A stretch of 64,000 bases of DNA from assembly GCF_003334815.1 (NCBI RefSeq), contig NZ_QOWO01000001.1. One strand, written 5' to 3'. Within the stretch, counting starts at the first letter, position 1. Every line of letters begins with the position of its first letter. The notes under the pieces are model-generated. The model ran no database searches and was not told the origin of the DNA. It worked only from the letters and a program-made list of their open reading frames with translations. Source of the DNA: Escherichia coli. Its GTDB lineage: Bacteria; Pseudomonadota; Gammaproteobacteria; Enterobacterales; Enterobacteriaceae. Positions 18,122 through 51,892 of the stretch are shown here, piece after piece. Made by a program: the position numbers and the translations under genes.

Positions 18122-19609
<1,488 letters not shown>

Positions 19610-42357: not shown

Positions 42358-43335
42358 ATGCTTTTAGCTACGGCACTGTTAATTGTTGGTTTACTTTTGG
42401 TCGTTTACAGTGCCGACCGCCTGGTTTTTGCCGCGTCTATTCTTTGCCGAACCTTTGGCATCCCGCCGCTGATCATCGGCATGACGGTGGTCAGTATTGG
42501 TACATCGTTACCAGAAGTCATCGTCTCGCTTGCCGCGTCTCTGCACGAACAACGCGATTTAGCCGTTGGTACAGCCCTCGGCTCAAACATTATCAATATA
42601 TTGCTGATCCTCGGTCTGGCTGCGCTGGTTCGTCCTTTTACCGTCCATTCTGATGTTCTACGCCGTGAATTACCCTTAATGTTGTTGGTCAGCGTGGTGG
42701 CCGGTTCCGTACTCTATGACGGACAACTTAGTCGCAGCGATGGTATCTTTCTCCTCTTTCTGGCTGTGCTATGGCTGCTGTTCATTGTTAAACTTGCACG
42801 TCAGGCTGAACGTCAGGGGACTGACAGCCTGACCAGAGAGCAGCTTGCAGAGCTGCCGCGTGACGGCGGATTGCCCGTCGCGTTTTTATGGCTCGGCATT
42901 GCGCTTATCATCATGCCAGTGGCCACGCGGATGGTGGTTGATAACGCCACGGTGCTGGCGAATTACTTTGCCATCAGCGAGTTGACGATGGGTCTGACGG
43001 CAATTGCTATCGGAACCAGCCTGCCGGAACTGGCAACCGCAATAGCGGGGGTTCGCAAAGGTGAAAACGACATTGCTGTCGGAAATATCATTGGCGCAAA
43101 CATTTTTAATATTGTCATCGTGTTGGGTTTACCCGCGCTGATAACGCCAGGAGAGATTGATCCACTGGCGTACAGTCGTGACTACAGCGTGATGTTGCTG
43201 GTGAGCATTATTTTTGCGTTGCTGTGCTGGCGGCGCTCCCCGCAACCGGGCCGTGGTGTAGGGGTATTATTAACTGGCGGATTTATCGTATGGCTGGCGA
43301 TGTTGTACTGGTTATCGCCAATACTCGTTGAATAA
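42358..43335 (+). CDS. yrbG: CaCA-family cation antiporter-like membrane protein YrbG
   Basis: ORF track 325 aa; duplicated GTSLPE alpha-repeat motifs. Confidence 0.9.
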   Translation: MLLATALLIVGLLLVVYSADRLVFAASILCRTFGIPPLIIGMTVVSIGTSLPEVIVSLAASLHEQRDLAVGTALGSNIINILLILGLAALVRPFTVHSDVLRRELPLMLLVSVVAGSVLYDGQLSRSDGIFLLFLAVLWLLFIVKLARQAERQGTDSLTREQLAELPRDGGLPVAFLWLGIALIIMPVATRMVVDNATVLANYFAISELTMGLTAIAIGTSLPELATAIAGVRKGENDIAVGNIIGANIFNIVIVLGLPALITPGEIDPLAYSRDYSVMLLVSIIFALLCWRRSPQPGRGVGVLLTGGFIVWLAMLYWLSPILVE

Positions 43336-50052: not shown

Positions 50053-50321
50053 CCGTCAAGCAAACTGTTGAAATCACAAACAAGCTGGGCATGCATGCCC
50101 GGCCTGCAATGAAGCTGTTTGAATTAATGCAGGGTTTTGACGCTGAAGTGCTCTTACGTAATGACGAAGGCACCGAGGCTGAAGCCAACAGCGTTATTGC
50201 GCTGCTGATGTTGGATTCTGCCAAAGGACGGCAGATTGAAGTTGAAGCGACCGGTCCACAGGAAGAGGAAGCACTGGCCGCCGTTATCGCCCTCTTTAAT
50301 TCTGGTTTTGATGAAGATTAA
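50049..50321 (+). CDS. npr: Nitrogen-related phosphocarrier protein NPr
   Basis: ORF track 90 aa; HPr-like; 4-bp overlap with rapZ. Confidence 0.95.
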
Positions 50322-50467
50322 TCTTCATCACTTTGACATACAACTCCCTTCAAACTCCCCCCGACAATAAGAAAATCACGTACTGAAATCGTTCTCAATC
50401 AACGTCATTTGTACATTTTGTGCGCTTTTCACTTTCAGAAGAACCTTAAGAAAACCTTAAGAGGCAT

Positions 50468-50484
50468 TGTTTAGGTTTTGTTTA
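50468..50484 (+). promoter_or_regulatory. PhoP box in the yrbL promoter
   Basis: TGTTTA-ggttt-TGTTTA, a perfect (T/G)GTTTA-N5-(T/G)GTTTA direct repeat about 50 nt upstream of the ATG. Confidence 0.8.
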
Positions 50485-50534
50485 AGTTAATCGACCATAC
50501 TGGAGATCGTCAGAAAATATTTCCAGGAGATGGC

Positions 50535-51167
50535 ATGATTCGCTTATCTGAACAAAGTCCCCTGGGCACCGGAAGACATCGGAAATGTTATGCGCATCCG
50601 GAAGATGCCCAACGCTGTATCAAGATTGTCTACCATCGTGGCGATGGTGGCGATAAAGAGATCCGCCGTGAGTTAAAGTACTACGCGCATCTTGGTCGCC
50701 GGTTAAAAGACTGGAGTGGAATACCGCGCTATCACGGTACCGTTGAGACGGATTGCGGAACCGGTTATGTCTACGATGTGATTGCAGATTTTGACGGCAA
50801 GCCTTCCATTACGCTGACCGAATTTGCTGAACAATGCCGTTACGAAGAAGACATTGCACAACTGCGCCAGCTACTGAAACAGCTGAAGCGTTATTTGCAG
50901 GATAACCGTATCGTGACGATGTCGCTGAAGCCGCAGAATATCCTCTGTCACCGCATCAGTGAGTCAGAGGTTATCCCGGTCGTCTGCGACAACATTGGTG
51001 AAAGCACATTGATTCCACTGGCGACCTGGTCGAAGTGGTGTTGTCTGCGTAAGCAAGAGCGGTTATGGAAACGATTTATCGCCCAACCGGCGCTGGCTAT
51101 TGCCCTGCAGAAAGATCTGCAACCTCGTGAGAGCAAAACGCTGGCCCTCACTTCGCGCGAAGCTTAA
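50535..51167 (+). CDS. yrbL: PhoP-regulon protein YrbL
   Basis: ORF track 50478..51167; start trimmed to [13 protein letters not shown] (210 aa) with SD GGAG upstream. Confidence 0.9.
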
Positions 51168-51892
51168 TCCAGCTGGTGTTGTTGCATAAACGGCTCACCG
51201 CCTAACTGATACATCTGCCGTAAAATCCACGCCTGACGGCTACGCACGTAGCCCGATGGCGAGGAGACTTTGAAACGAAGTGGATTAGGTAATACAGCTG
51301 CCAGTAATGCAGCTTCCGACCGGGTAAGTTTGCTCGCGGGTTTGTGGAAATAACGTTGTGCCGCAGCTTCGACGCCAAACACACCGTCGCCAAATTCGGC
51401 GATATTCAGGTAAACCGTCAGGATACGCTTTTTGCTCCAGACCGTTTCTATCCCCAGCGTTAATCCGGCTTCCAGCCCTTTTCGAACCCAGCTACGCCCA
51501 TCCCATAAAAAGAGATTTTTGGCTGTCTGTTGAGAAATCGTTGAAGCACCGCGAATACGGTTTTCATTGCGCTCGTTGTGCGCCAGGGCTTTCTCAATGG
51601 AAGCGACATCAAAGCCCCAGTGCTCAGGAAATTTCTGATCTTCTGCGGCAATCACCGCCAGTCCCATCCACGGCGAGATTTGATCCATACTGACCCAGTC
51701 AGAATGTGCCACGTAACGAAAATTGCCATGCAGCCAGGCGCTGACCTGTCGCTCGACCATTACCGCTGAGAAGGGAACAGGCGCAACGCTAAACAACGCG
51801 ATGCCCCCGCCCCAGAAAACGGCGAGGACAACCATTAACCGCAAAAGAAAACGGCGAACGAAACTAAACACCGTTAAGCGGCTTTTACTCAT
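51164..51892 (-). CDS. mtgA: Monofunctional biosynthetic peptidoglycan transglycosylase
   Basis: ORF track 242 aa; N-terminal TM anchor plus glycosyltransferase-51 motifs. Confidence 0.95.

Follow-up and report, generated by a model that had tools for sequence, protein, structure and literature searches.

The direct repeat TGTTTA-GGTTT-TGTTTA that precedes yrbL on the plus strand (50468..50484) is very probably the PhoP operator of the yrbL promoter. All positions given here refer to the window, the whole 64-kb stretch of Escherichia coli DNA that was analysed. The yrbL promoter is a textbook PhoP-activated, PmrA-repressed promoter and is already known as such: the gene is counted among the standard members of the PhoP regulon, and the promoter serves as a model PhoP reporter. 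An earlier reading of this DNA, which had recognised the PhoP box, was incomplete, since a PmrA/BasR repressor box, itself already published, is present in the promoter as well.

The operator lies in the 213-bp intergenic region between npr and yrbL (50322-50534). The plus strand reads rpoN, hpf, ptsN, rapZ, npr, intergenic region and yrbL; mtgA, elbB and arcB follow beyond yrbL on the minus strand. Each of the 5,426 complete E. coli genomes contains this intergenic region, and in about 54% of them its identity to the K-12 version is 99% or higher; in the window it is 100% identical to that of K-12 derivatives such as MC4100. The yrbL coding sequence (50535..51167, plus strand) specifies a minimal protein-kinase-like protein of 210 aa. 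An upstream TTG start at 50478, which would give a 229-aa ORF, was rejected, as the RefSeq annotation uses the ATG at 50535 and frame-breaking indels fall between the two in Citrobacter. At the other end of the gene, the yrbL and mtgA coding regions are convergent and share 4 bp (51164-51167), so that the 3′ ends of the two genes must overlap at the transcript level. Reportedly, yrbL is named in a paper on excludons.

The PhoP box consists of two identical plus-strand half-sites, TGTTTA at 50468-50473 and at 50479-50484, separated by the spacer GGTTT (50474-50478), and it conforms to the direct repeat (T/G)GTTTA-N5-(T/G)GTTTA of PhoP-activated promoters. Its assignment draws on the exact repeat, a position weight matrix (PWM), conservation and the literature. 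The perfect PhoP direct repeat described earlier is present in the sequence and proved unique: the exact pattern TGTTTA-N5-TGTTTA has a single match on the two strands of the 64-kb window. A PhoP PWM scan, proposed at the same time as a check, was run with a matrix built from six literature-quoted boxes of other genes, yrbL being left out. The yrbL box scored 19.0 bits, about 5 SD above the mean, and ranked first of 127,964 positions. The runner-up at 18878 (18878-18896; 17.05 bits) is intragenic, and when one mismatch to KGTTTA-N5-KGTTTA is allowed, one further site appears in the window, at 42377, within an ORF. These next-best PhoP-like matches (18878-18896 and 42377-42393) are both inside long ORFs and probably not promoters. 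Neither the pattern search nor the PWM search revealed a second PhoP box at the yrbL promoter.

A chance repeat in AT-rich intergenic DNA, without control over yrbL, has to be weighed at this point. Intergenic DNA often contains short AT-rich repeats, and with the degenerate consensus and one mismatch, 15 of 100 shuffles yielded at least two matches in 64 kb. The exact repeat, however, occurred in none of 100 dinucleotide-preserving shuffles; the box, which is kept across genera while its flanks diverge, stands at a distance of exactly one helical turn from a -10 element that is conserved; and the identical site of Shigella flexneri binds PhoP, yrbL being about 50-fold PhoPQ-dependent in that organism. 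The published EMSA, S1 and reporter results effectively refute a coincidence, the probability of which is practically nil.

The PhoP box ends at 50484, leaving a gap of 11 nt to the -10 hexamer CATACT (50496..50501, plus strand), which falls within the stretch near 50495-50502 proposed earlier for the -10. This hexamer is the same as that of the mapped Salmonella promoter and is invariant at 6 of 6 positions in 12 aligned Escherichia, Citrobacter and Salmonella sequences. The -35 element is vestigial: TAGGTT (50472..50477, plus strand), located within the PhoP box, has four mismatches to TTGACA and stands at an 18-bp spacer from the -10, as in the Salmonella yrbL entry in Table 2 of PMC3335776. 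Moreover, a consensus promoter scan of 50250-51300 found no stand-alone sigma-70 -35/-10 pair. This, together with the very poor -35, agrees with a promoter that needs an activator in order to fire, and by both the scan and the TAGGTT hexamer the yrbL promoter has no functional -35 and is activator-dependent. A single box in the orientation of the gene, over the -35 position and 11 nt from the -10, also matches the published Salmonella geometry.

The transcription start is predicted to lie within 50504..50509 on the plus strand, judging from the Salmonella +1 and from usual spacing. The Salmonella start, 2 nt past CATACT and with a 32-nt leader, corresponds to about 50504 in the window, and the usual spacing of 6-7 nt would place it at about 50508-50509. 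A +1 only 2 nt from the -10 is unusually close, and mapping imprecision may account for it. The leader contains the Shine-Dalgarno sequence AGGAG (50525..50529, plus strand), 5 nt before the ATG, in a region with a mean majority identity of 0.87; the ATG itself (50535) is 51 nt downstream of the PhoP box. Two methylation sites were also observed in this part of the promoter. A Dam site, GATC, occupies 50505-50508 at the predicted start region, and a Dcm site, CCAGG (50523-50527), overlaps the beginning of the Shine-Dalgarno sequence. In a dcm mutant, yrbL was among the five most significantly up-expressed genes, with a log2FC of +0.83 (PMC11741368).

Published experiments on three enterobacteria bear directly on the regulation of this promoter. 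In Salmonella, where PhoP boxes were defined by DNase footprinting, yrbL heads the table of PhoP-activated promoters, with the box TCGTTTAGGTTTTGTTTAA in architecture I, the -10 CATACT, the -35 TAGGTT, an 18-bp spacer and a 32-nt leader; its 11-nt gap between box and -10 is an exception to the usual 12, and a single start was mapped by S1 nuclease, in the wild type at low Mg2+ only (PMC3335776). Architecture I promoters were predicted in the same work to be class II, an alpha-CTD-independent contact having been demonstrated for mgtA only (PMC3335776). The yrbL site of S. flexneri, tTGTTTAggtttTGTTTAa, which is identical to the sequence in the window, is shifted by PhoP-P in EMSA, and a lacZ fusion confirmed regulation; a phoPQ mutant retained 0.02 (array) or 0.07 (qRT-PCR) of the wild-type amount of yrbL mRNA, the array value being a drop of about 50-fold (PMC5775216). 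In E. coli, a yrbL reporter rises upon light-controlled (optogenetic) induction of PhoP and saturates at low PhoP levels (PMC13215669), which we regard as consistent with a consensus, high-affinity box. S1 and footprint evidence specific to E. coli is available at second hand, from works that cite Minagawa 2003 and Zwir 2005; yrbL is not mentioned in Perez 2009.

Taken together, the Salmonella S1 and footprint data, the Shigella EMSA, lacZ and mRNA data and the E. coli reporter support the control of yrbL by Mg2+ and PhoPQ that the preliminary description had proposed. That description would have been refuted by yrbL expression independent of PhoP or Mg2+; published work has already put this to the test, with the opposite outcome.

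The second operator is a PmrA/BasR repressor box, CTTAAG-AAAAC-CTTAAG (50445..50461, plus strand), identified by its exact repeat, its conservation and the literature. It conforms to the direct repeat YTTAAK-N5-YTTAAK of PmrA/BasR sites, and CTTAAG-N5-CTTAAG has its sole exact match in the window here; even with one mismatch allowed, shuffled sequences gave a mean of 0.03 matches. The box lies 6 bp upstream of the PhoP box, with a start-to-start distance of 23 bp, and a PmrA-PhoP box distance of about 24 bp is reported for Salmonella yrbL (PMC2681069). According to two works that cite Zwir 2005, the E. coli yrbL promoter contains PhoP and PmrA sites, and PmrA binds and represses it (PMC3335776, PMC2681069). 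In iron-adapted evolved lines of E. coli B, basR, eptA and the arn genes are up and yrbL is down.

The presence of PmrA next door also lends some interest to the idea that the repeat is used chiefly by another regulator of the OmpR/PhoB family, or as a repressor site over the -35. Winged-helix regulators share the direct-repeat architecture and its 11-bp periodicity, PmrA is a second such regulator, and operators that overlap a -35 can repress. Nevertheless, the half-sites follow the consensus of PhoP and not that of PmrA, RstA, CpxR or OmpR; loss of PhoPQ lowers yrbL expression instead of raising it; and there is no functional -35 to occlude. We consider this explanation extremely unlikely.

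In the preferred reading, a PhoP operator with an adjoining PmrA site, low Mg2+ or other PhoQ signals would lead PhoP-P to bind as a head-to-tail dimer to the TGTTTA half-sites of 50468-50484, which would take the place of the missing -35 element. Once bound, PhoP would recruit sigma-70 RNA polymerase in a class II manner, a contact demonstrated for mgtA and predicted for yrbL, to the weak -10 hexamer CATACT. Transcription from about 50504-50509, the start region proposed for E. coli, would yield a leader some 30 nt long that includes a strong Shine-Dalgarno sequence. At 50445-50461, the Fe3+/PmrD-responsive regulator PmrA/BasR would dampen PhoP activation, presumably through repression from its box. 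Activation by PhoP and dampening by PmrA together make yrbL a PhoP-activated, PmrA-repressed gene.

The closest known system is the orthologous promoter of Salmonella enterica yrbL (Zwir et al. 2012, PMC3335776), which shares the single direct box, the 11-nt gap, CATACT, TAGGTT, the 18-bp spacer and a roughly 32-nt leader, with a PmrA box some 24 bp upstream. The two differ in the box itself. Strain 14028s has CGTTTA-N5-TGTTTA, whereas the K-12 allele is consensus in both half-sites, and the two Salmonella loci compared here have CGTTTA-N5-TATTTA, with ATTAAG as the first PmrA half-site. The mgtA and phoP promoters are built in the same way, one (T/G)GTTTA-N5-(T/G)GTTTA direct box replacing the -35 about one helical turn from the -10, although their gap to the -10 is 12 nt versus 11 nt in yrbL. 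The mgtA leader is 264 nt long and regulatory, while that of yrbL measures about 30 nt, and the adjacent PmrA box is a feature of yrbL, unlike mgtA and phoP. In this last respect yrbL resembles the pmrD promoter (the 'bi-fan' motif), which is likewise PhoP-activated and PmrA-repressed and has its PmrA box shortly before the PhoP box on the upstream side, at a distance of about 38 bp compared with about 24 bp in yrbL. However, the product of pmrD is the connector that activates PmrA, whereas the yrbL product has no known role in the loop.

A phylogenetic footprint of the upstream region was obtained by aligning Escherichia whittamii, E. albertii, three further Escherichia lineages, four Citrobacter and Salmonella arizonae. 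Mean majority identity is 0.53 in the upstream remainder (50322-50408), 0.96 in a conserved block at 50409-50428 and 0.61 in the gap between this block and the PmrA box (50429-50444). Within the PmrA box (50445-50461), it is 0.90 in the first CTTAAG half-site, 1.00 in the spacer and 0.96 in the second half-site; it is again 0.61 in the gap to the PhoP box (50462-50467). The PhoP box (50468-50484) shows 0.90, 0.87 and 0.89 for first half-site, spacer and second half-site, followed by 0.69 between the box and the -10 (50485-50495) and 1.00 in CATACT (50496-50501). Variation of the PhoP box in the alignment is limited: each half-site begins with T or C, the second has G or A as its second base, and a single T/G difference occurs in the first. 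The 5-nt spacing of the half-sites is constant across the aligned genera. The GTTTA/TTTA cores are likewise fixed across Escherichia, Citrobacter and Salmonella, the distances from the elements to the ATG are constant within 1 nt, and the flanks are unalignable.

Further afield, Siccibacter and an Erwinia species combine a degenerate PhoP box with a retained CATACT. Pluralibacter and Cedecea have mainly the CTTAAG repeat left, their PhoP box having decayed, which indicates that PhoP control is not universal among syntenic orthologues. A separate observation concerns Enterobacter hormaechei, in which a non-syntenic copy of YrbL (192 aa, 60% identity) is preceded, upstream of locus position 1501, by a TGTTTA-N5-CATTTA box of its own, by CATAAT as the -10 and by the block-like sequence TGTACATTCTGTGC, all at the same distances from the ATG. 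This copy seems to have moved along with its promoter. A 420-bp contig of Tannerella forsythia ATCC 43037 (contig135), with 99% protein identity to E. coli yrbL, is almost certainly E. coli contamination of the assembly.

Within E. coli, the word 'perfect' used in the preliminary description holds for the K-12-type allele and not for the species, since O157 and the other divergent alleles sampled carry CGTTTA. Base 50479, with which the second half-site begins, is T in Shigella, in several Escherichia other than E. coli and in the K-12-type allele. O157:H7 has C at this position, as do four E. coli alleles of greater divergence that were taken from the range of 93-95% identity. Roughly half of the complete E. 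coli genomes have the perfect PhoP box, which is an allelic state. A different kind of change was seen in the clinical E. coli strain Ecol_AZ161, in which an IS66-family element is inserted directly after CATAC of the -10 (locus ~478-560) and parts the PhoP-dependent promoter from yrbL.

A further upstream element of the intergenic region is the 20-bp block TTGTACATTTnGTGCnCTTT (50409..50428, no strand assigned), of which 18 of 20 positions are invariant across the 12 Escherichia, Citrobacter and Salmonella sequences. Its mean majority identity of 0.96, against 0.53-0.61 in the flanks, exceeds the conservation of the PhoP box. The start-to-start distance from the block to the PmrA box is rigid at 35-36 bp (36 in the window), Pluralibacter included, and recognisable versions of the block occur in Siccibacter, in Pluralibacter and in the non-syntenic Enterobacter copy. 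No further copy was found in the window with up to three mismatches, which speaks against a repeated motif. The block has no Rfam match that would make it a structured RNA or a member of a known RNA family, the sole Rfam hit being a chance snoRNA match elsewhere (E = 0.21). Searches of the accessible literature did not find the sequence of the block or that of the PmrA box in print.

Two other identities were considered for the block and rejected. A small ORF (TTG 50409 to TAG 50472-50474) is interrupted, as a variable position gives an in-frame TAG in one Citrobacter. A 3′ UTR or terminator of npr is at odds with the location of the block downstream of a clear terminator in C. amalonaticus, Siccibacter and Pluralibacter. 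The block was also compared by eye with consensus sequences of known binding sites, with partial fits at best. An RstA box fits in its first half and spacer and not in its second half, a MarA/SoxS/Rob marbox on the minus strand fits at about 11 of 14 specified positions, and the Fis 15-mer fits at 6 of 6 specified positions of a very degenerate consensus. The GC of a sigma-54 -24/-12 element is present and the GG is not, and CRP, NtrC, MlrA and TyrR sites do not fit. None of these sites explains the invariance at 18 of 20 positions. The block may be a third operator, through which the promoter would integrate a third regulator besides PhoP and PmrA.

The same block is relevant to the proposal that yrbL is expressed mainly by read-through from rpoN-hpf-ptsN-rapZ-npr, or from an upstream promoter linked to the block, the PhoP box acting only as a modulator. 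An additional invariant element at 50409-50428 would suit such a promoter, and the scan of the K-12 allele predicts no intrinsic terminator after npr and ahead of yrbL, so that read-through from the one gene into the other is possible. C. amalonaticus, Siccibacter and Pluralibacter, for their part, have a clear hairpin and T-tract terminator 3′ of npr. Against this proposal, no sigma-70-like -35/-10 pair is tied to the block, and residual yrbL expression in the Shigella phoPQ mutant amounts to just 2-7%. Some PhoP-independent read-through into yrbL from the rpoN operon is possible; as the main source of expression, read-through or an upstream promoter is very unlikely. PhoP activation from the box at 50468-50484 is the preferred account of yrbL expression.

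The statement in the preliminary description that the biochemical function of YrbL is poorly defined is still correct: no functional literature on the YrbL family or PF10707 was found. Family membership over the full length and above the curated threshold is clear, with 398.9 bits against NCBIfam NF007671 (cutoff 227) and E = 2.3e-67 against Pfam PF10707 (residues 2-185), and there is also a weak Pkinase hit. The family comprises 1,036 clusters at 50% identity. An AF2 model of YrbL has a pLDDT of 94.8, its structural matches are kinase folds, and the protein is confidently modelled as a minimal protein-kinase-like fold without the canonical catalytic Asp. The features of the kinase clan are found in this fold, namely a Gly-loop, the VAIK Lys, the alphaC Glu, the catalytic-loop Asn and the DFG-type Asp, and the residues G13, K30, E46, N135 and D152 are conserved in 105-118 of 118 aligned family members. 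The catalytic Asp of the HRD motif, on the other hand, is replaced by Ser130 in E. coli YrbL and is Asp in only 43 of the 118 family members. RIO1/RIO2, Bud32, NleH1/OspG, HopBF1 and the LPS kinases WaaP/WaaY/InaA, all of the Pfam Pkinase clan, were compared with YrbL. The protein matches neither PF06293 nor the WaaP/InaA models, only PF10707, NF007671 and, weakly, Pkinase being found, and WaaP is not among its top structural matches.

The genomic surroundings of distant homologues provide a further view of the family. In Enterobacteriaceae, yrbL is fixed between npr and mtgA, and the E. coli gene is outside any LPS or surface-glycan cluster. Six contexts of non-enterobacterial homologues were sampled, four of which are clearly LPS or surface-glycan clusters, with a fifth that is suggestive. 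One combines a confidently identified waaP (E = 4e-121) with a GT4 gene and another YrbL paralogue; another has adjacent Wzy_C and GT25 genes; and a third has a GT2 gene and a second paralogue. A longer cluster reads GT4, GT1, Wzy_C, GT2, LicD, YrbL, NTP-transferase, APC permease and Wzz, the neighbours scoring below curated cutoffs. Here, YrbL occupies the slot that the LicA-type kinase has in the lic operon. The context that is suggestive only has a tandem pair beside a Pfam Sulfatase-family gene without an NCBIfam match, and the last is a methyltransferase fusion with no glycan genes nearby. Distant YrbL-family genes often come as paralogue pairs. In a selection for resistance to the cationic peptide TAT-RasGAP, the yrbL missense mutations V149L and E42G appeared alongside mutations in basS and rfaY/waaY.

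On these grounds, we tentatively propose that YrbL is a small ATP-dependent kinase in cell-envelope decoration, a possibility that we hold to be rather less than even. By analogy with LicA, which feeds LicC/LicD, candidate acceptors may be an LPS-core sugar or a head-group precursor. A link between YrbL and an envelope-decoration kinase was not found in the searchable literature. In an unrelated context, yrbL holds the 'yrbL consensus elemental pause' of single-molecule RNA polymerase studies (PMC11260103). The exact site is not printed in that paper, and a relaxed G(-10)...TGYG(+1) pattern alone gives candidates at 50747, 50856 and 50978.

Several consequences follow for the biology of yrbL. 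The CGTTTA half-site, present in many pathogenic lineages, could explain strain differences in the sensitivity or saturation of yrbL induction. The deep conservation of the block points to a third input into a promoter that has been regarded as completely described. Finally, the neighbourhoods of the distant homologues lead to a testable hypothesis of function for a protein under PhoP control that has been left uncharacterised for over 20 years. If YrbL is indeed an envelope kinase, its positive control by PhoP and negative control by PmrA would tune the charge of the LPS.
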